This document shows, in pieces, positions 1,342 to 57,555 of a stretch of 64,000 bases of DNA (the first letter of the stretch is position 1; every line of letters begins with the position of its first letter). The position numbers and the translations under genes were made by a program. The DNA lies in IMG/VR virus record IMGVR_UViG_3300023109_001684, one strand, 5' to 3'. The stretch is from a virus. The notes beneath the pieces were generated by a model, which was not told the DNA's origin, did not search any database, and saw only the letters and a list, made by a program, of their open reading frames with translations.

Positions 1342-1370
1342 AGTATATGCTATTTTTAGTTATTTGTCAA
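1342..1370 (-). promoter_or_regulatory. Sigma70-type promoter for the kinase gene
   Basis: TTGACA-N17-TATACT. Confidence 0.85.
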
Positions 1371-3420: not shown

Positions 3421-4907
3421 TGCAATATTTTTATGATGGACAAATTAGACGCTATATTACTCAAATGGTGCGTTTATTAAGTAATTTCAATGTAAGTGAT
3501 TCACATAATAATCTTACACAAATACCTGTAATGTACGGAGACTTAACTAGACAAGTAGCTAATATTATTCGAGACAATAGTGAAAATAAAATTCCTAGTG
3601 TGCCAAGAATTGCAGTATATGTAACTGGTTTAGAAATGGATCGCGAAAGAACAGGTGATAGTAGTTTTGTAAACAAAATAAGTGTTAGAGAACGGGCATA
3701 TGATTCTACAAATGAAGAATATTTAAATACACAAGGTAAAAACTATACTGTTGAAAGATTGATGCCAAGTCCTTATACACTAAGATTACAAGCTGATATA
3801 TGGGCAAGTAATACCGAACAAAAATTACAGATATTAGAACAAATACTTGTACTGTTTAATCCTAGCTTTGAAATACAAACAACAGACAATTATCTTGACT
3901 GGACTAGTTTAAGCGTTGTAAATTTAGACAATGTAACCTTTAGTAGTCGTAGTATTCCTGTAGGAGTCGACTCCGAAATTGATGTTGCAAACATGCAATT
4001 TAGTACTCCTATATATCTAACTCCTCCTGCAAAAGTAAAACGCCTTGGCGTGGTTACAAATATTATTACAAGTATATTCAACGAAGACACTGGAAGTATT
4101 AATTTAGGATTAACGCTAGATGGTGTTGAACCTATATTTGAATCAACAAGAACAGAAGTAGGCGAAGACGGTGAAGAAGAAAGAATTGTTGATGACGGAC
4201 AATTTCCTAATGACGGGACTGGTGTTATGGATATCAGTGCAGAGTATAGATGGGCAGGTCTAACATCTAGCTCAACATATCGTAATTACGGATTAAATGT
4301 CATCGGTAGTGAAGCAGAAGTAGTATATAGAGGTACATCAGGAGAAGTTACATTTACTGAACTATTAGACACTATTCCAGGTACATATACAGCAGATGTA
4401 AGTAAAATATATCTAAAAACAGATGACTCAGATAATTATGTAATTGGCACAATTACAATAAATGCTTTAGATAATACAAAATTATCTATTAACTTTGACA
4501 ACGACACATTACCTAACGATACTGTTATTACCGGGCCTACTGGAGATAGAGCTAGTATTGATTATATAATTGATCCGTTACGTTTTGATCCTAATCAAGA
4601 CAAATCAGTAGGTATAAGAATATTATTACTTGGAGCCATCGGCGACGATGACAATCAAGACGGTGCAGATGCTTGGAAAAATACAGACGGTACTGACTTT
4701 GTAGCACAAGAAAATGATATTGTAGAATGGGACGGATCTAGATGGCATATAATATTTGATAGTAATGTTGACGACAGTACAACTATCTATACAAGTAATC
4801 TTACATCTGGTATACAATATAAATGGGATAATGCTAACAAATACTGGGTAAGGTCTTACGAAGGTGAGTATTATCCCGGAACATGGACATTCATATTAGA
4901 TGCCTAA
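3420..4907 (+). CDS. gp15: Tail terminator/sheath stabiliser, T4 gp15-like, with C-terminal extension
   Basis: MQYFYDGQIRRY, IPVMYG, PSPYTL and QILEQILVLFNP match the gp15 family. Confidence 0.8.
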   Translation: MQYFYDGQIRRYITQMVRLLSNFNVSDSHNNLTQIPVMYGDLTRQVANIIRDNSENKIPSVPRIAVYVTGLEMDRERTGDSSFVNKISVRERAYDSTNEEYLNTQGKNYTVERLMPSPYTLRLQADIWASNTEQKLQILEQILVLFNPSFEIQTTDNYLDWTSLSVVNLDNVTFSSRSIPVGVDSEIDVANMQFSTPIYLTPPAKVKRLGVVTNIITSIFNEDTGSINLGLTLDGVEPIFESTRTEVGEDGEEERIVDDGQFPNDGTGVMDISAEYRWAGLTSSSTYRNYGLNVIGSEAEVVYRGTSGEVTFTELLDTIPGTYTADVSKIYLKTDDSDNYVIGTITINALDNTKLSINFDNDTLPNDTVITGPTGDRASIDYIIDPLRFDPNQDKSVGIRILLLGAIGDDDNQDGADAWKNTDGTDFVAQENDIVEWDGSRWHIIFDSNVDDSTTIYTSNLTSGIQYKWDNANKYWVRSYEGEYYPGTWTFILDA

Positions 4908-12662: not shown

Positions 12663-14326
12663 TTAGCTACAACAAGTATATATAACCCGTTCCACCATTG
12701 ACTAATATCTTCAACATCATTTAGCATTAGTTTTTCGTATGTAACATAACCTCCGCACTCATTAATGCCTTCTCTAGCACCATTAACTACTCCGTCCCAA
12801 TTTGCATCATCAAATATTAAAACAGTTTCGTTTTTAAAAGTATTCCAATAATGTTTAACTACATTCTTTGTAGATTCTTGATCATGAGGACCATCGTAGA
12901 AAAACATGCTAAATGCATTTGACATATTTGTAGTATCAATTGCAAACATATCATTATTAATTACTTCAATTCTATTATTGCCTTTATACGGTTCAACATT
13001 TTTAATAAACTCATCTAAAGAGTTAGGAGGAGTAGTACTTCCATTAGCTGGCTGTATTTGCTCTTCCCACTTATCGATAGCAACAGCAAGAAGCATATTG
13101 TCTTTTAATACCGAACTTAGAGTTGCTCCTAAATACGATCCAATTTCTAAATAAGAGTCGACACCTTTTGCAATAGAGTTAAGAAGAGTTTGTACTCTAG
13201 GTGAAGTTAGCCCAGGTATGTCAACTTTTGTTGTAGGAATACCGCTTGACTCAACACAAGTAACTACATGCTTAACTAAATCGCTGTGATCAATTTCTGT
13301 TTTTGCTTTGTAAATTTTATCGCAAAATTGACATTCCCAACAGTCAAATTTACAGTTCTTAATAAGTTTGCGCCATGCGTCAATAGGACGTTCTTTTAAA
13401 TTTGTATCTTCTAAATATTGGTTAAATGTTTCTATTAATATTTCTTCGTTATCGTCCCATTTTTTAATTATAGTCATGGTTTCGAAAAGTCTACTTACTG
13501 CTTCTCTACCATGCATTTTAAATACGTCAATACCGCAATCATTAATCAATTCTTCCCAATCTTCTTTCCATGGCGGCAGATCAGAAGTTTTTAAATGTAC
13601 TGCTGGATCTATAAAGTCCCATTTAGGACAACTTACTCGACTTATAGGATCATTAAAGTATTGCGGATCGTTACCTTGTCTAGTATTATTATATTCAAAA
13701 TGTTCTACCATCATAGGGCAGTTACCTAAACACCCTTCATTTGCTAATAAACTAATTTTAATTTCTTTTCCTAAATTATCCTTAATCCATTCTTTAGCGG
13801 CTTTAATGCGTAATAGCGTATCTCTGTCACGCATTAAGTCTCTATCTAAATTGATATAATCAAACCCAACTTTAGCAAGATTTACTATTTCAGTTGCAGT
13901 TCTTACATCACGTAAAATAGTATTCTTAACCATTAACTCAGGAAATGCACGTTTTATTTGACCAGTTGCCATCCAGTGTGTATGTGGTATAGTAGCTATA
14001 CGTACACCTGCATCATATATAGGTTTGAAATTCTTTATAAAGAGATCTAAATTCTTTTGTGTCGGGGGAACTTGTATATTATTAAATGTTGCACTGATCG
14101 GAATATCTAAACTTTTTTGTATATAGATAGCCATGTCAATAGCATGAGAATAGTCTTCGTTATGTATAAAGATATCTCCCATTGCATCTTGTGCAAAGGG
14201 GGAAATCCTCGAAGTAAAATATACATCGTAAATTAAATGTTTATATGTTTTTAGAAAAGAAATAAACTCGTCGAATTCTTCTTTACTTAATTTAGGATTT
14301 AAAGGTACACTGAATATCTTTTGCAT
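12659..14326 (-). CDS. Peptidase U32-like (Fe-S hydroxylase family) domain fused to class I SAM methyltransferase
   Basis: INLDRDLMRD, LLANEGCLGNCP, DVFKMHGRE and CKFDCWECQFC; C-terminal YLEIGSYLG, FFYDGPH and LIFDD. Confidence 0.75.
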   Translation of the reverse strand: MQKIFSVPLNPKLSKEEFDEFISFLKTYKHLIYDVYFTSRISPFAQDAMGDIFIHNEDYSHAIDMAIYIQKSLDIPISATFNNIQVPPTQKNLDLFIKNFKPIYDAGVRIATIPHTHWMATGQIKRAFPELMVKNTILRDVRTATEIVNLAKVGFDYINLDRDLMRDRDTLLRIKAAKEWIKDNLGKEIKISLLANEGCLGNCPMMVEHFEYNNTRQGNDPQYFNDPISRVSCPKWDFIDPAVHLKTSDLPPWKEDWEELINDCGIDVFKMHGREAVSRLFETMTIIKKWDDNEEILIETFNQYLEDTNLKERPIDAWRKLIKNCKFDCWECQFCDKIYKAKTEIDHSDLVKHVVTCVESSGIPTTKVDIPGLTSPRVQTLLNSIAKGVDSYLEIGSYLGATLSSVLKDNMLLAVAIDKWEEQIQPANGSTTPPNSLDEFIKNVEPYKGNNRIEVINNDMFAIDTTNMSNAFSMFFYDGPHDQESTKNVVKHYWNTFKNETVLIFDDANWDGVVNGAREGINECGGYVTYEKLMLNDVEDISQWWNGLYILVVAK

Positions 14327-14348: not shown

Positions 14349-14354
14349 TAGTTA
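14349..14354 (-). promoter_or_regulatory. Late-promoter variant TAACTA at the head of the enzyme cassette
   Basis: ATAACTACTAATAG about 23 nt upstream of ATG 14326; the same variant occurs at 4924-4929. Confidence 0.5.
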
Positions 14355-14378
14355 TTATAACAGAGAGTGAGCTAGTTG

Positions 14379-14927
14379 TCAAGTTGGTTCTAGCCAATGT
14401 ATCTTAAATTTTGGAGCTCTCTTCCTGCGCATATTAATCGGAAACCCTACATCAAAGTAGTCATACATTAATTCTTGGGTTGCATTTATAGTAGTTAATT
14501 GATTAATTGCTGCATTTAAACCAGCAACTGATTTACTGTTTGGCTCAGTATGATTTTTTAAGTGTATTCGCATTATAGTTTTATAAAATTCTACACAGTT
14601 AAGGGTATCTGTTTGTGTAAGTCTGTAGTAAACTTTAGTTTCATCCAGTTCTTCAGTATCTCCGCTTCCGTCAAATATTTCAGCATAAACGTTTGTCGAC
14701 TTTCTTACAGAAATTTCACCTTCGTGGGCACTAGTAAATTTATAAGCTTTAGCTACATTCTCTGATACTTTCTGACCATGTAACCAAGAGTACACAATGT
14801 CATCGTTATTGCTAGGAAATTTAATGACGCTATAGCACCAAAACTCTCCCATTCTTTCCATTAGAGGATGCAATCGAGGATCGTCACCTGCAACAGTTTC
14901 ATGTATTATATAAGTCGTATCCGTCAT
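14379..14927 (-). CDS. Hypothetical protein
   Basis: 182-aa ORF overlapping the upstream gene on the same strand. Confidence 0.7.
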   Translation of the reverse strand: MTDTTYIIHETVAGDDPRLHPLMERMGEFWCYSVIKFPSNNDDIVYSWLHGQKVSENVAKAYKFTSAHEGEISVRKSTNVYAEIFDGSGDTEELDETKVYYRLTQTDTLNCVEFYKTIMRIHLKNHTEPNSKSVAGLNAAINQLTTINATQELMYDYFDVGFPINMRRKRAPKFKIHWLEPT

Positions 14928-47284: not shown

Positions 47285-47743
47285 TTATGCGTCTGCTGTG
47301 AAATCGTCATCATCAGTGTTGGAGACATCATCTTCACCAGCTTCTTCAACTTGTGCTGCACCATCTGTAGTACTTGTACTAAAGTTCCATGGCACTGACT
47401 TTCCGTCATATGCGTTTGCGCCTGTAGCACTTGGAGCAACTAGTGTTACTTTACGTCCAGAAATTTTACTTACTGTGTATGTTTCTGCATCATCCATTTT
47501 GAATGAAATAGCCATTTCACCTGCTGTTAGTGCTGCTGGTAATTTGCCAGTTGTTAGCACACAAGTATGTAATGTATCTAACGTACCTGTTTCTGAACAT
47601 ACGAATCTTTTAGATCCTTTTTGCTTTACAATGAAGCCTTCTTTAACGCCTGCTCCGTCGTGAAAGTTAACTTTGATTTCATCTCCTGCACCAGGACCTG
47701 TAGTAGCATCTGCAAAAAATCTCTTGTTTAGTGGTCTTCCCAT
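47285..47743 (-). CDS. Hypothetical late protein (possible head decoration)
   Basis: Own late box (47840-47845), structured leader and AGGAG RBS; lies downstream of the capsid gene. Confidence 0.7.
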   Translation of the reverse strand: MGRPLNKRFFADATTGPGAGDEIKVNFHDGAGVKEGFIVKQKGSKRFVCSETGTLDTLHTCVLTTGKLPAALTAGEMAISFKMDDAETYTVSKISGRKVTLVAPSATGANAYDGKSVPWNFSTSTTDGAAQVEEAGEDDVSNTDDDDFTADA

Positions 47744-47764
47744 TTTTTTTCTCCTATAAAAAGT

Positions 47765-47838
47765 AGTCCAATGCCCGTTCTATGAGCTACGCTGTGGGTA
47801 CAGCATAAGTCCGCCTTGCGGCACACTATTTGACATTA
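47765..47838 (-). ncRNA. Structured 5' leader (three-way junction)
   Basis: CUAAUGUC/GGCAUUGG closing stem, GCC-GCAA-GGC hairpin and UAUGCUGU-ACCC-ACAGCGUA hairpin. Confidence 0.55.
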
Positions 47839-47871
47839 GTATTTATCAAAGGGTTAACAGAAAAGAAAAAG

Positions 47872-47906
47872 AAAAAAGGCCTACCGCATTAGTGGGTAGA
47901 CCTTTT
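47872..47906 (-). terminator. Rho-independent terminator, possibly bidirectional
   Basis: AAGGUCUACC...GGUAGGCCUU stem followed by a U-run; T-runs flank the stem on both strands. Confidence 0.8.
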
Positions 47907-48120
47907 AATAATAAAGTGATAGGTTGGGATTAATGATTACCAACAACTCCTCAGCAACTCATTTCTAAGTTCGGAGAGCCTAACATCGGAAAGTTACTTC
48001 CAAAATACGCATCTTTGTATCTCTACACTCATGCGCTCCTACTACAGGTGCTAGCCAAGTTTACAACGCTGCGGTTGCTTATTCCTTGCACTATCTAATC
48101 TAAACCGTCGTCTAGCTTAT
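47872..48120 (-). ncRNA. Candidate stand-alone structured ncRNA, about 250 nt
   Basis: Own sigma70-like promoter and terminator, no substantial ORF, multi-stem fold closed by GAUAG/CUAUC. Confidence 0.65.
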
Positions 48121-48126
48121 GTACTT

Positions 48127-48154
48127 AATATAACATCATTATAAACAATGTCAA
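48127..48154 (-). promoter_or_regulatory. Sigma70-type promoter for the candidate ncRNA
   Basis: TTGACA-N16-TATATT with extended -10 TG; overlaps a TAAGTA late-like box. Confidence 0.7.
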
Positions 48155-48220: not shown

Positions 48221-49402
48221 TTAGCTGAAGCTTACTGCACTGTTAGTAATGTCAACTTTACCTAAGTAATCAGCTGCGTTACCAAGCGATGATGCTGTGT
48301 TGTTTAGTTCCACATAACCATAACGTGTCATGAATGATACAGTTGGTTCAAATGTATCTGGATCTAGTACAACGCCTGAGCTCATTAGTGGGATATATGG
48401 GCAATAGAACGCTGCTGCGTCTGATTCGCTTGATCCTTTGTAACCAATAAGTACTGGACTGCTGTCAGCTGCATATGTGTTTACATATACTTTCATTGCA
48501 TTGTTCAATGTACCAACCATTTTAGTGTTAGTTGGTGCTTCGAATGTACCTTCTGTTGTTCTTGCGAACGCTGAAGTTGTAGCAGACTGTAGGATAGTTA
48601 GTGCAAATGGTGATACCACTGCCCAGTTACCTGCGCCTCTACGTGTACGCTGTGCAATCAAGTTACTTACGCGGTTGATTTGTACTGCTAATGCAGCATG
48701 CTCATCACCTACGAAAGTAGCTGTGCCACTTACTGCTGATTGGTCATAAGTTTCAGCAGCAGATCCTGCTAGTGAACCTAAAGAAGCTAATACTTCTTGA
48801 TCAATTTCAGCTGTAATTTCTTGTGCTAGAGCAGCCATAATTTCTGCTTCAACATCAATACCATGCTGTGACTGTGCATCTTGAGCTGCCTCAAAGGTCC
48901 AACGTGCTGATAGCTTACGTGATTTAGCTTCAACAGTCTGCTTTAAGATCTGAATGCTCATTCTGTTGCCTGCCGCGCCTTCTAATGCGCTTGTGGCTGC
49001 TGCCCTGTCGTCTGCTGCGGCACCTGAGTAACCTTCAGCAATTTTGAATGGGCTTAGTGCTTCATCACCAGCTGCTGTGTCTGTTCCGTTGGTGCTGTTA
49101 AAAGCATCTGCGTAACGTACACGTAGTGTGTGAATCTGACCAACTGGACCAGTCATAGGTTGTACACCTACTAACTCGTTAGCAATAACAGTTGGCATAA
49201 CACGTCTGATAACTGGTAGGATAACACGGTTAAGTGTTGCTACGTTACCTGCGCTTGTTGCACCCGCTGTTGCAGCTTCTGAAAGATACTTGCGAGTGTT
49301 TTCTAGTGTGGCAGCCATTACTGACTTCTTGTTACCGTCTAGGCCTTCAAGAAGAGCAGTCTTTGTGTCTGTCCAGCGACTTTCTAATAGTTCTGACATC
49401 AT
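48221..49402 (-). CDS. gp23: Major capsid protein, T4 gp23-like
   Basis: LVGVQPMTGPVG, VEAKSRKLSARWTFEAAQD, FYCPYIPL and MTRYG. Confidence 0.97.
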   Translation of the reverse strand: MMSELLESRWTDTKTALLEGLDGNKKSVMAATLENTRKYLSEAATAGATSAGNVATLNRVILPVIRRVMPTVIANELVGVQPMTGPVGQIHTLRVRYADAFNSTNGTDTAAGDEALSPFKIAEGYSGAAADDRAAATSALEGAAGNRMSIQILKQTVEAKSRKLSARWTFEAAQDAQSQHGIDVEAEIMAALAQEITAEIDQEVLASLGSLAGSAAETYDQSAVSGTATFVGDEHAALAVQINRVSNLIAQRTRRGAGNWAVVSPFALTILQSATTSAFARTTEGTFEAPTNTKMVGTLNNAMKVYVNTYAADSSPVLIGYKGSSESDAAAFYCPYIPLMSSGVVLDPDTFEPTVSFMTRYGYVELNNTASSLGNAADYLGKVDITNSAVSFS

Positions 49403-49409
49403 AATCTCC

Positions 49410-50507
49410 TTAATTTAATCCAGCAAGACGGCGTAAGTCTAATACATTAGAATCGTCTGCTTTTGGTGTCATAGTTTTTTCTTGTGTTCTGTTGCCTGTA
49501 ATTTCTTTTGCCTCTGATAAGACTGCCTTGCGCTTCGCTGGTCCGTTGCCGTCAATAACTGATGGTAGGTACTTATTGAAAGATTTATTTAATCTGTCAG
49601 TTTGTACACTTTCCAGTAAGTCTGTCATGATATCGCGCTGATCCTTTGATAAAGGAGCAACTAGATCTGTCATAATTTTCTCTCTGCGAACTGATTCAGA
49701 AAGTACTTTATTTTTATTTTGCTGTGCTTCTGCAATTTCAATAGCTTTCTTAGCAGCAACTTTTGCTTCACTAATCTGCTTGTTCTTTGCATCGACAACT
49801 TTTAAAAGTTTAGATGTTTCTGAGTTTTCGTTTAGATAGCTACTTGTGTATTCACTTGCGAATGCTTCAAATAACTTACGACCAAAGTCGTTCTGTCTTG
49901 CTTCATCAATATCTTCTTTAAGTTGATGTATTTCGCTACGTAGAGCTTTGTCAACTGTTTCTGATACTGCTATTGCACTTCTTTCGATAAAGTCTGTTTT
50001 GACCTTAGCGAAGTGTTCCTTAGCTTCACGTACTAATCGTACTTTCGTTTCAGCTAAGTCTTGTTTATCTTCGTGGAACTCTGCAATTTCTTTAGATAAT
50101 GCTTCAACAACAAAATCTTCAAGTTTAGCATGCTGTACAGCCATTGCTTTGCGTTCTTCGTGTAGTTCGGAAACTTCTGTTTTAAGCTGTTCCATAACAA
50201 AACCTTGCATAAGGTCTGCGTTTTCACGCATAGCAATAGCATACTTCGCTTTTGCTTCAGCTAACTGCTGACGATCTTCTGCAAATTCTGAAATTTCTTC
50301 AGCTAGACGTTCCTCAAGCAACTTGTCAATAGCTTCCACCATTGTTTGCTTGTCATGCTCGTACTTTTGAGCAAACTCCTCACGAAGTTCCGCAGTGACT
50401 GCTTTACGGTTTTCACCGATTTTAGCTTCCCATGCTTCTTGAAGTTCTGCTTTTACATCATCTGTAAGTGCATCGCTTTCGAAGAGTGATTTTAATGCGT
50501 CCAACAT
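49410..50507 (-). CDS. gp22: Prohead core scaffold protein, gp22-like
   Basis: Acidic coiled-coil protein between protease and capsid genes. Confidence 0.85.
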   Translation of the reverse strand: MLDALKSLFESDALTDDVKAELQEAWEAKIGENRKAVTAELREEFAQKYEHDKQTMVEAIDKLLEERLAEEISEFAEDRQQLAEAKAKYAIAMRENADLMQGFVMEQLKTEVSELHEERKAMAVQHAKLEDFVVEALSKEIAEFHEDKQDLAETKVRLVREAKEHFAKVKTDFIERSAIAVSETVDKALRSEIHQLKEDIDEARQNDFGRKLFEAFASEYTSSYLNENSETSKLLKVVDAKNKQISEAKVAAKKAIEIAEAQQNKNKVLSESVRREKIMTDLVAPLSKDQRDIMTDLLESVQTDRLNKSFNKYLPSVIDGNGPAKRKAVLSEAKEITGNRTQEKTMTPKADDSNVLDLRRLAGLN

Positions 50508-50521
50508 ATTATTCTCCTCGT

Positions 50522-51151
50522 TTATTGGAGACCATTGATTATATTAACCAATTGATTCTTTAAAAACTTTTGTGCCTTTGCATCTTCTTTTGTTGCCTCT
50601 GCTAATTCATATGCCTTCATCCCGCCACGAGTATTCATGATATGTTCATATATCGGAGTTGGATATGCACCAGGGGCGCTGGGTTGAGCCACAACGTCCA
50701 CAGTGATTATTTCAAAACCAGTAACGTTGCCGTTACCGTCAACTTCACCAGAGCCCCTAGAGGAAACACCTAGTTTAACACCTGCTTCTAACATAGTTTT
50801 AACTAACTGTCCCATAGGGGTTGGTAAGATTTTCATTTTGCCGAAACCGTTATCGCCATCCATCCACATATCTGTGATCATATGACTTACACGATCTAAG
50901 TTAATGTTAAGACCCTCTGGGTGGTCAACTTCGCCGATTACACTAAAACCTTCGCTGATTTGATCATTGAGAGTTTTGACAGCCCTTCCAATCTCATTTA
51001 CAGGATACACACGCTGGTTAGCGTTGCGTACTCCGCCCTGGATACAAATACCTTTTAGGTAAAGATCTTTGCCTCCATTTGAGTTTTCCGCGGTCTCAAG
51101 TACCATGCCTGCTTGGTCAAATGTCAAATGTTCTCTTAAAAAGTTGGCCAT
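50522..51151 (-). CDS. gp21: Prohead protease, gp21-like
   Basis: NANQRVYP, GEVDHP, LGVSSRGSG and DVVAQPSAPGA. Confidence 0.95.
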   Translation of the reverse strand: MANFLREHLTFDQAGMVLETAENSNGGKDLYLKGICIQGGVRNANQRVYPVNEIGRAVKTLNDQISEGFSVIGEVDHPEGLNINLDRVSHMITDMWMDGDNGFGKMKILPTPMGQLVKTMLEAGVKLGVSSRGSGEVDGNGNVTGFEIITVDVVAQPSAPGAYPTPIYEHIMNTRGGMKAYELAEATKEDAKAQKFLKNQLVNIINGLQ

Positions 51152-54966: not shown

Positions 54967-57555
54967 TTAATACACCGATCCTACGGATCCAAGTGCAGAT
55001 ATTTGTTTCTTACTATTTTTTTCAATTGACATTAAAATAGAAGCGGTGTTACTCATAGTAGTATTTAATTGATTTATAGCATTTATGACACCTTCTTGAT
55101 TAATTGTAGCACCATTATTATTAGTTGTCAATGAATTTAATTGTGCTTGCATCTTATCTGCATTTGCTAAAAACTTACCAGCGTTGCTATCTTCAGGAAC
55201 AACTGCTTCACGATTGTGTAGTTCTGCTAGTGTACCTGTTCCAAAGTCTCTAAATCCGTTAGTACCGTTCCTAAACTGTGGTGGCTGTCCAGCAGGGTTT
55301 AATATTGCCCTATGTTTAGCAATTTCAACTAATAGATCTGCAGGCATTGGTCGGTTCCTAAATGCTTCTATCCTTGCTGCATATTCTTCGTCTGTTTCTG
55401 CTTCTCTTGCACCTACACCAAAGAGACCATTAGATGCTTGTAGTTGCTCGCCAACAACTTGGCCTTGCATATACTCTAACCTATTAATATTTTTTTGTAG
55501 ATCTTCGTTTACTAAAGTAGCATTAGCAGGATCTAATCTTCCAGACTCAAGTCCGCGGATTTCGTAGTCTTTACGTTCTCGTCTTAATCTTTCGTTATCT
55601 AATACACCTAACTTATTATCAATTCCTTCTTGTAATCTTAACATTACTCCTTCAAAGTGATAACCAACAGTGTCTACTAATTGTGTGCCGCCAGTGGATG
55701 ACATAAAATCTTTTATAGAATCTACAAATGCGTTACCAATTCGCACTCCTAAGCTTTCACCTTCTTCGCCAGGAGGAAATAATTTGTCCATAACCTGTGA
55801 CATTAAACTTTTACCAGCAGTTTCGGAATCTTCAAGTCCAATCTTTTTCAAAAATTGTGCATATATTGATTCGGAACCTTCTCCAGTTTCGAACCCCACA
55901 AGTTCTAAGAACTTATTTGATACAAATTTATACATATCAGCAAATCCGGATGCTATTTTTTCAAATAATCCTCCTTGGCGTTGCATATCAGTTTCTTGAT
56001 CTCTTGGATCTACATCTACTAGCTCACCTAAGAAATAATCTTTTATATTTTCATATATTTCGCTAATCTTTCCTGAAGGATTAGCAGCAAACTCGTCAAC
56101 AAATTGATTAAAGTTTGTAATAAATCCTTGTATCTTTTCGTCAGTAAACATACCATCTAATAGATTAGTAATTGCAGGTGCTAATTTATCTATCATCGGT
56201 GTAAGAATTTTTGCTCTCATTTGTTCAATCATATTACTAAATTGAGCAAGTCCATTTGTAAGATCATCTCGTTGTGCTTGTTCGTCTTCTGCTGCTTTAC
56301 CTGATGCGTCTGTAATAGATAAAAATGCTGCTGCACTATCTTGTAAATCTGCAATCGGATGTCCTAATTGTCTCAATCCGCCAATTGCTTCGGGACTATT
56401 CATGAAATCAGCCATCATCGGGCCCATTTGTTTTAGTCTATCATTAAATTCTTCTTGAGTTAAGTTTCCTGCTCGGTATGCTTTCATTGTTTCTAATGCA
56501 AGACCGTCAGTCATACTTACTAATGAAGCTTCTAATGGATTGTTTGCAATTCCATCTGCTAATCCTTTTAGTGCTGTTACTGCTGCGCCGCCGCCTTGCT
56601 CTGCTATTTGACTCAGTCTAGCTGTGTTTGCATCAAATTCAGCTACATTTCCATTTCTAGCTAGAATTTCAGATCTAATACTACGAACCATTGCATCGGC
56701 TTGAGTTGCAGCAAGTGCCTGTTCAGCATCTTTTCTATTCATGCCTGTAATTTTTGTTAGTTTATCTAGTTCTTTAATGTAACTTACACTACCTTGTAGT
56801 AATTGATCATTAGATAGTCTTTCTAGATTACCTAAACGTGCTTGGTTTCTAGTATAGCTTGCTAAACCTTCCACAACGCCTTCAACAGTAAGTCCCATAC
56901 CAATCAATTGGCCGCGTAATCCTTGCTCCCCCATTGATTGATTTAATTGAATAAATCGTTTTGCACCTTCACTAGCAGTACTACCTAACATTTTCATTAC
57001 ATCTGAATTTCCAATTAGTGCATTTTCAAGTATTTCTGCATTAATACCTGATGTTACTAAGCTTCTTCCCATTTCTTTAATATCATTATTAAAAGATATA
57101 CCTACATCGGAAAAACTACGTAATCTATCCACTGCCGCTTCTAAGAATCGAGTAAAACTACCTAAATGCTCTCCTACCACAGGTAAATGATCAGCAAAAT
57201 CAGATAATCTAGTGCCTCCCATAACAAGTTGTTTAGATAGTCCAGTTGCACTACCTGCAATTCCTGCAATTCCGGCAACTAATCCATTAAATGCGTTACC
57301 TGCTAAACCTGATAGTGTACTTGTGCTCTTTTTCAGTGCAGCAGTATTTTTATCACGCTCTTCTGTGTTGTCTGCAATACTACCGGAAGCAGTTTTTAGT
57401 GATTTTTCATAATTTTGTAATACTTGTTGTTTAGGAGAATTTATGCCATTTGCTTTTGCCAACTTATCCATAGCCACAAGAAGCCTACGCAGAGTAACTT
57501 CACTAGCTACTCCGGCTTCGCCGCCTACATTACCAATATCGACTTCTTCTGCCAC
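54967..57555 (-). CDS. Tape-measure-like tail protein
   Basis: 862-aa A/G/L-rich helical protein with C-terminal GT.GF.DFG.GTLAELHNREAVVP motif; GTG start with GGAG RBS. Confidence 0.7.
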   Translation of the reverse strand: MAEEVDIGNVGGEAGVASEVTLRRLLVAMDKLAKANGINSPKQQVLQNYEKSLKTASGSIADNTEERDKNTAALKKSTSTLSGLAGNAFNGLVAGIAGIAGSATGLSKQLVMGGTRLSDFADHLPVVGEHLGSFTRFLEAAVDRLRSFSDVGISFNNDIKEMGRSLVTSGINAEILENALIGNSDVMKMLGSTASEGAKRFIQLNQSMGEQGLRGQLIGMGLTVEGVVEGLASYTRNQARLGNLERLSNDQLLQGSVSYIKELDKLTKITGMNRKDAEQALAATQADAMVRSIRSEILARNGNVAEFDANTARLSQIAEQGGGAAVTALKGLADGIANNPLEASLVSMTDGLALETMKAYRAGNLTQEEFNDRLKQMGPMMADFMNSPEAIGGLRQLGHPIADLQDSAAAFLSITDASGKAAEDEQAQRDDLTNGLAQFSNMIEQMRAKILTPMIDKLAPAITNLLDGMFTDEKIQGFITNFNQFVDEFAANPSGKISEIYENIKDYFLGELVDVDPRDQETDMQRQGGLFEKIASGFADMYKFVSNKFLELVGFETGEGSESIYAQFLKKIGLEDSETAGKSLMSQVMDKLFPPGEEGESLGVRIGNAFVDSIKDFMSSTGGTQLVDTVGYHFEGVMLRLQEGIDNKLGVLDNERLRRERKDYEIRGLESGRLDPANATLVNEDLQKNINRLEYMQGQVVGEQLQASNGLFGVGAREAETDEEYAARIEAFRNRPMPADLLVEIAKHRAILNPAGQPPQFRNGTNGFRDFGTGTLAELHNREAVVPEDSNAGKFLANADKMQAQLNSLTTNNNGATINQEGVINAINQLNTTMSNTASILMSIEKNSKKQISALGSVGSVY

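Follow-up and report, generated by a model that had tools for sequence, protein, structure and literature searches.

A diverged manA-family RNA, apparently an independent gene, next to the capsid gene of an uncultured giant T4-like phage

The manA RNA (RF01745) was described from marine metagenomes, T4-like cyanophages and two gamma-proteobacteria (Weinberg 2010, PMC2864571). It was found "commonly in potential 5' UTRs" and was rated a riboswitch candidate for its complexity and its 5' UTR position, and one part of its structure was marked "pseudoknot?" in the same work. In a recent preprint (10.64898/2026.07.01.735769), cryo-EM of several manA RNAs revealed octamers, decamers and a 60-mer T=1 cage. 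The cages are built from pentamers and held by kissing loops (L5-L7', L8-L9' or L3-L8') together with a GNRA L6-P6' contact, and five different manA RNAs all gave discrete closed oligomers in vitro. They were made at high RNA concentration and 10 mM Mg; manA is still termed a putative cis-regulatory element there, and no in vivo data are given. The introduction of the preprint also names ROOL, GOLLD and OLE as large ornate RNAs that form RNA-only multimers. The manA family is still labelled cis-regulatory, and the sole structural work on it was done in vitro.

RNAs of the ROOL, GOLLD and OLE type often lie in phages or prophages near tRNA genes. Phage T4 makes the stable RNAs C and D (species 1 and 2), which are small and non-coding, lie in its tRNA cluster and are expressed with the tRNAs from an early promoter. 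Here we analyse an RNA encoded in a 64,000-nt stretch of viral DNA (IMG/VR record IMGVR_UViG_3300023109_001684; hereafter the window). Like ROOL, GOLLD and OLE, it appears to be stand-alone and is highly structured, while self-assembly through loop contacts is a property of theirs; these RNAs are far longer, have neither sequence nor fold in common with it, and gave no Rfam match at the window locus.

The locus behind the capsid gene

The RNA is encoded on the minus strand, as are all elements of its transcription unit, whose coordinates were checked letter by letter (Table 1). On this strand, the gene order runs from a prohead protease (50522-51151) through a scaffold-like gene (49410-50507) to the gene of the gp23-type major capsid protein. 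This capsid protein was found to be nearest to those of jumbo phages of Vibrio, Sinorhizobium, Pseudomonas (PA5oct) and Erwinia/Serratia, with 67-71% identity; cyanophage capsids are not the nearest. A gene-free gap of 477 nt separates gp23 from an ORF of 152 amino acids, for which no Pfam or PHROG family was found and tblastn against cultured phages returned no match.

The preliminary description of this DNA, made from its letters, had placed in the gap a promoter, an RNA body and an intrinsic terminator, shielded from read-through by the UUCG terminator of gp23, and all of these elements were located. The promoter consists of TTGACA (48154-48149), a 16-nt spacer with an extended TG, and TATATT (48132-48127), with the RNA predicted to start at the A at 48120. 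The terminator (47906-47872), a strong one, begins 11 nt past the fold. Five other promoter-like sites of the form TTGAC-N18-TAnnnT occur on the minus strand of the window (1342-1370, 14354-14382, 55103-55131, 60058-60086 and 63560-63588), all of them on the coding strand within the late structural gene region.

Between 47827 and 48220, neither strand holds an ORF of 30 amino acids or more. A small-peptide gene was considered for the RNA stretch and rejected, since the longest frame within the RNA has about 12 codons and the substitutions are patterned as in paired RNA. In agreement with the preliminary description, which had recognised no hallmarks of tRNA, tmRNA, 6S or SRP RNA, ARAGORN reported neither a tRNA nor a tmRNA on this stretch, and an Rfam search with E values up to 10 gave only manA and matches at chance level.

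Beyond the terminator stands the word GATAAATA. All eight of its copies in the window lie just 5' of an ORF start and on the strand of that ORF, a distribution that fits a T4-type late promoter. About 15 nt past this word begins a match to the freshwater-2 RNA (47825-47741), which reaches into the start codon of the 152-aa gene and is the sole Rfam report in the window at gathering scores. It looks like a 5' leader of late transcripts; a literature search on freshwater-2 found nothing relevant. The same leader was also seen behind the manA unit in many relatives.

Table 1. Features of the RNA gene and its surroundings in the window
Feature	Position	Strand	Basis
Major capsid protein gene, gp23 family	48221..49402	-	Pfam Gp23 E = 4.9e-99; PHROG 138 major head protein
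Intrinsic terminator of the capsid gene, UUCG loop	48178..48203	-	11-pair stem and T run
Sigma70-type promoter with A-rich tract upstream	48127..48154	-	11/12 consensus positions
manA-family RNA body, ~213 nt	47908..48120	-	Rfam manA match 47913-48115; model R1 217.5 bits; covariation
5' hairpin, GACG loop	48115-48100	-	part of manA RNA body
Closing stem	48095-48091 with 47922-47918	-	part of manA RNA body
Hairpin arm	48088-48056	-	part of manA RNA body
Second-hairpin loop CGCAGC, probably L3	48068..48073	-	long-range complementarity to a P4-arm segment
Three-hairpin sub-junction	48054-47980	-	part of manA RNA body
GNRA tetraloop GAGA capping the extended arm (L6 by mapping)	48020..48023	-	GAGA, GAAA or GUGA in 40/40
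P4 arm	47976-47947	-	part of manA RNA body
GUUGCUG, 3' side of the P4/P8 arm	47952..47958	-	pairs with 48068-48073; part can pair locally with AACUU 47971-47967
Last hairpin	47944-47923	-	part of manA RNA body
Intrinsic terminator of the RNA gene	47872..47906	-	hairpin -17.1 kcal/mol; independent in whole-transcript fold
Late-promoter word GATAAATA of the next gene	47840..47847	-	upstream of ORF starts; kept downstream of the RNA in relatives
freshwater-2 RNA (RF02980), putative 5' leader of the 152-aa late gene, outside the manA unit	47741..47825	-	68.6 bits against a cut-off of 49.9
152-aa ORF, downstream neighbour	47285..47743	-	no Pfam or PHROG family; behind the RNA in 22/40 loci

Fold and family membership

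Since the single window sequence folds only slightly better than its shuffles (z = -2.15), relatives were collected, and the structural evidence comes from the comparison with them. Retrieval by capsid protein gave 80 IMG/VR loci, and in 23 of them gp23 is followed, on its own strand, by a homologue of the RNA. Further IMG/VR copies were added with a 14-letter core word, resulting in 40 distinct sequences. In blastn searches of 50,697 cultured phage records, neither the intergenic region nor the RNA of one relative found a match.

The structure used for the covariation analysis was derived from the window copy. In a MAFFT alignment of 14 sequences, 88.2% of the cells were paired compared to 35-43% for slid partners, and 37 of the 58 pairs had changed on both sides. 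With 23 distinct sequences, in an alignment that was fitted to the model, these values rose to 90.2% (37-42% for slid partners) and to 52 of the 58 pairs. None of 500 shuffles reached such numbers of changed pairs. On this comparative evidence, the manA-type fold behind gp23 is real.

This structure agrees with the helices drawn in the preliminary description, which had suggested covariation as a check, and most of these were borne out: GAUAG/CUAUC, CAAG/CUUG, GCAAC/GUUGU, GCGCAU/AUGCGU, UGUA-GAGA-UACA, GGAAG/UUUCC, CUCC/GGAG and GUUGG/CCAAC are all present and covary in the relatives. A further helix, AACUU/GAGUU, turned out to be weak, with 49-57% paired in the alignments and with a 3' strand that overlaps a segment covarying better with the hairpin loop of GCAAC/GUUGU. 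The pseudoknot proposed between UAAUC and GAUUA was not upheld, as the 5' linker is always (A/G)UUA and the 12-nt loop is free to change. A search for further tertiary pairings among the unpaired columns gave only near-invariant short matches.

The Rfam manA model (RF01745) matched positions 47913-48115 with 42.8 bits and E = 1.3e-9 (permissive thresholds in a 701-nt search; about 1e-7 when rescaled arithmetically to 64 kb). Model positions 1-192 of 192 were aligned with every helix represented, at a score below the gathering cut-off of 55.2 bits. Among the homologous copies, however, L027 (79.9 bits) and L045, L055, L040, L075 and L029 (55.5-58.6 bits) exceed this cut-off. We built model R1 from window-type copies, which links the relatives to the window copy. 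With R1, the Rfam-passing copies were recovered in the corresponding position after gp23, with scores of 71-128 bits, and a single manA-type RNA was found within the 64-kb window. Because copies that pass the cut-off occupy the same spot in relatives, the window RNA is, by homology, a diverged member of the known manA family and no new kind of RNA. The preliminary description had taken it for a novel RNA and named a search of Rfam as a check; that search returned a known family, and novelty is refuted by the criterion set in that description. An RNA family with no known relatives would account for a window copy that the gathering score misses and for the lack of blastn matches among cultured phages, but a manA match that runs full length, helix by helix, and homologous copies above the cut-off make it exceedingly improbable.

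The likeness to manA extends over the whole helix topology: a 5' hairpin with a GACG loop, the closing stem, a hairpin arm, a three-hairpin sub-junction bearing a GNRA loop, the P4 arm and a last hairpin whose loop starts with GGUA. Also shared are GUG and GAAUAA, the junction words that follow the closing stem, and a T4-like phage as the carrier. In contrast, the closing stem is GAUAG/CUAUC in the window and GGGAG/CUCCC in manA, the GNRA arm is lengthened, and the L7-type loop is UAAC instead of an ACC-containing loop, with the canonical L5-L7 match absent. The window RNA ends at its own terminator, whereas the textbook manA runs into an ORF. The carriers differ too, the window capsid being nearest to those of proteobacterial jumbo phages, unlike the cyanophage carriers of manA. 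The range of the family is thereby extended from cyanophages to T4-like phages with a capsid of this kind.

Transcription unit and genomic context

We then compared the surroundings of the RNA across its relatives. Both promoter hexamers and the TG were kept in all 40 members at a fixed distance from the RNA, with a spacer that varies. The consensus comprises an A-rich tract, GGTTGAC, a spacer of 17-18 nt of free sequence, TGyTATATT, and ACATAAG at the predicted start. Fixed hexamers around a free spacer are the conservation expected of a promoter, unlike that of RNA structure. An intrinsic terminator was found no more than ~15 nt past the fold in 31 of the 40 members, with a median of -15 kcal/mol and with stem sequences that differ, and the distance from start site to terminator was 242-259 nt. 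These features support the earlier view of a stand-alone, early-type RNA with its own promoter and terminator, for which the timing is what we infer.

The neighbours of the RNA are less constant. In 34 of the 40 loci gp23 lies upstream, while L091, L130 and L113 sit elsewhere, and a gene of the 152-aa type follows in only 22. Another sigma70 promoter stands after the terminator in L045 and L055, and some members have more structured RNA ahead of the terminator. The Cis-reg label of manA is based on a position in 5' UTRs. The window RNA is not in one: a terminator, a late promoter and a leader precede the next ORF, and likewise in 31 of the 40 homologues.

Two relatives, L088 and L102, have no terminator, and a tRNA-Gly(UCC) gene directly adjoins the manA RNA. 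In L102, the tRNA (4366-4436) begins at the base after the manA tail. In both, manA and the tRNA are probably made as one precursor. The setting, with manA fused to the tRNA-Gly gene in the two relatives, recalls that of the T4 RNAs C and D, to which no relation in sequence or structure is expected.

Together, its own promoter, terminators of variable sequence, a varying downstream gene, and the separate late promoter and leader of the next gene point to autonomy of the RNA. Judged by these sequence features, it looks like a gene of its own rather than a 5' UTR switch.

Elsewhere in the family the arrangement may differ. The canonical manA of P-SSM2 (181.6 bits) resembles the window RNA in having a sigma70 promoter directly at its 5' end, a perfect one in the same position, but it is followed 15 nt on by a purL-annotated ORF with no terminator between them, so that cis action is plausible there. 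Among 90 canonical IMG/VR copies, a crude scan found a promoter in 62 and a terminator-like hairpin in 34, the latter count being only indicative. The first entries of the Weinberg seed alignment include manA copies located between tRNA genes and before an annotated terminator. Thus, both arrangements exist in the manA family, and the window lineage is, by its sequences, uniformly free-standing.

A terminator so close to a complex conserved fold could also belong to an attenuator, in which the manA fold would sense a metabolite and set the balance between a stop at 47906-47872 and read-through into the 152-aa gene. Transcription-terminating riboswitches have the same order of elements, a fold followed by an intrinsic terminator, here 11 nt away; manA was proposed as a riboswitch candidate (Weinberg 2010, PMC2864571), and about a third of the 90 canonical copies have a terminator-like hairpin nearby in the crude scan. 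However, neither terminator arm overlaps the fold. The 5' arm would gain only -1.0 kcal/mol from the RNA body in the window (median -1.9 kcal/mol in the homologues), and when 33 whole transcripts were folded, the terminator formed by itself in 27 (tRNA false positives accounting for 2 of the 33). With no partner for the 5' arm and an independent hairpin, nothing points to an expression platform that could switch. The terminator sequences vary with no conserved alternative pairing. Nor is there a constant gene to regulate: the downstream one differs between loci and is served by a separate late promoter and leader, and behind some copies stands a tRNA or a further sigma70 promoter. Given these features, we consider attenuation by the window RNA quite unlikely.

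Other elements were noticed around the RNA in its relatives. In L016, L027, L029, L045, L055, L059, L075 and L161, the manA promoter is preceded by a glutamine riboswitch aptamer (RF01739, 43-58 bits), which lies past the capsid terminator. In L016, where this module covers 4234-4393, a 28-aa ORF (4307-4393) after the aptamer overlaps the manA promoter. The aptamer module is missing from the window. In L091, L149, L130 and L113, which lack a terminator directly after manA, the 100-200 nt between manA and the next late promoter hold a conserved hairpin-rich sequence with no Rfam match, which may be a second co-transcribed RNA. On the viral contig of L091, which carries a manA-type RNA, there is also a permuted two-piece tmRNA gene of the alpha type (12888-13275, 118 bits), which could belong to the phage itself or be a clue to the host group.

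Loop contacts and a proposed role

To relate the window RNA to the manA cages, its helices were mapped to the numbering of the preprint by counting from 5' to 3', which places the GNRA arm at L6. Under this inferred mapping, L5 and L7 correspond to the loops GGUGGUG and UAACCAG of the canonical consensus; they are complementary to each other, so the numbering looks right. An L5-L7 match was found as GGU/ACC in the L040 group and as AGU/ACU in L027. In the window type, GUAGU faces UAAC with no Watson-Crick match of 3 bp.

A different contact stood out in the window lineage. In 36 of the 40 members, the loop of the second hairpin and the 3' side of the P4/P8 arm are complementary over at least four contiguous Watson-Crick pairs, and ten or more different sequence pairs are represented (GUAGA/UCUAC, ACAGA/UCUGU, GUAAG/CUUAC, CCCA/UGGG, ACAUA/UAUGU and GCAAC/GUUGC among them). 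The mean longest match was 4.45 compared to 3.00 for permuted partners (z = 10.5; 0 of 1000 permutations), in a permutation test that involves 29 distinct combinations and ignores relatedness. The same 3' segment can usually also pair within the arm, as in the AACUU helix of the preliminary description, with a lower signal for this local helix (z = 4.6). In 34 of the 40 members the long-range and the local pairing overlap, and they either compete or swap between molecules. The same test on 91 canonical cyanophage-type copies met copies too alike for it and a crude extraction of the loops. By its covariation, the L3-P8 contact could equally be an intramolecular pseudoknot or an intermolecular kissing contact, which look alike in such an analysis. 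The covarying loop-arm pairing and the invariant GNRA loop resemble, by analogy, the contacts of the manA RNAs solved by cryo-EM (10.64898/2026.07.01.735769).

We propose that the window carries a free-standing gene for a diverged manA-family RNA that is early, ~250 nt long, trans-acting and self-assembling, a reading that we regard as reasonably probable. Host RNA polymerase with sigma70 would start at about 48120, presumably early in infection, and would stop at the predicted terminator (47906-47872), releasing a discrete RNA of ~250 nt with the ends as predicted. This RNA would fold into the multi-helix manA core and would most likely act in trans as a folded particle rather than as a switch of the gene that follows. 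In analogy to the manA RNAs solved by cryo-EM, it would probably join its own copies via loop contacts, for which the pairing of 48073-48068 with 47958-47952 and the invariant GNRA loop are the candidate joints.

The same evidence of autonomy would fit a trans-acting RNA that works singly with no self-assembly, for instance by holding a host or phage protein in the manner of 6S or decoy RNAs. The loop-to-arm pairing can equally be formed within one molecule, as the "pseudoknot?" of Weinberg 2010 (PMC2864571) would have it, and the window subfamily shows no evident complementarity for L5-L7 kissing. On the other hand, all five manA RNAs studied in the preprint were closed oligomers in vitro (10.64898/2026.07.01.735769), the GNRA loop that makes the intermolecular contact there is invariant in the window lineage, and no candidate partner protein is consistently encoded beside the RNA in the 40 loci. 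We therefore consider a single-molecule role unlikely, and the self-assembling RNA remains our preferred reading.

In about 40 natural variants, the RNA appears to form an early gene by itself, with a length that is constant, and in two of them it is fused to a tRNA gene. The constant-length gene, the tRNA fusions and the compensatory contact argue, as far as comparison of sequences goes, that the fold works as a particle in trans. This comparative evidence, to which the covarying contact is added, speaks against the cis-regulatory label of manA. A wider claim would be that manA RNAs are early phage genes and no gene switches, with products that assemble into RNA-only shells or rings in the infected cell; we offer it tentatively, as a possibility we rather doubt. 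If it were true, the loop-to-arm contact would be a natural intermolecular joint of RNA shells, and an RNA cage, encoded beside the gene of a protein capsid, would for the first time have a rationale in vivo.

The two ends of the RNA may also meet. A conserved terminal helix of 8-9 bp (AUAAGCAA/UUGCUUAU), with no covariation, is present in more canonical relatives. In the window, the predicted 5' end AUAAG (48116-48120) can pair with UUAU/CUUUAU (47908-47914), just before the terminator on the minus strand.
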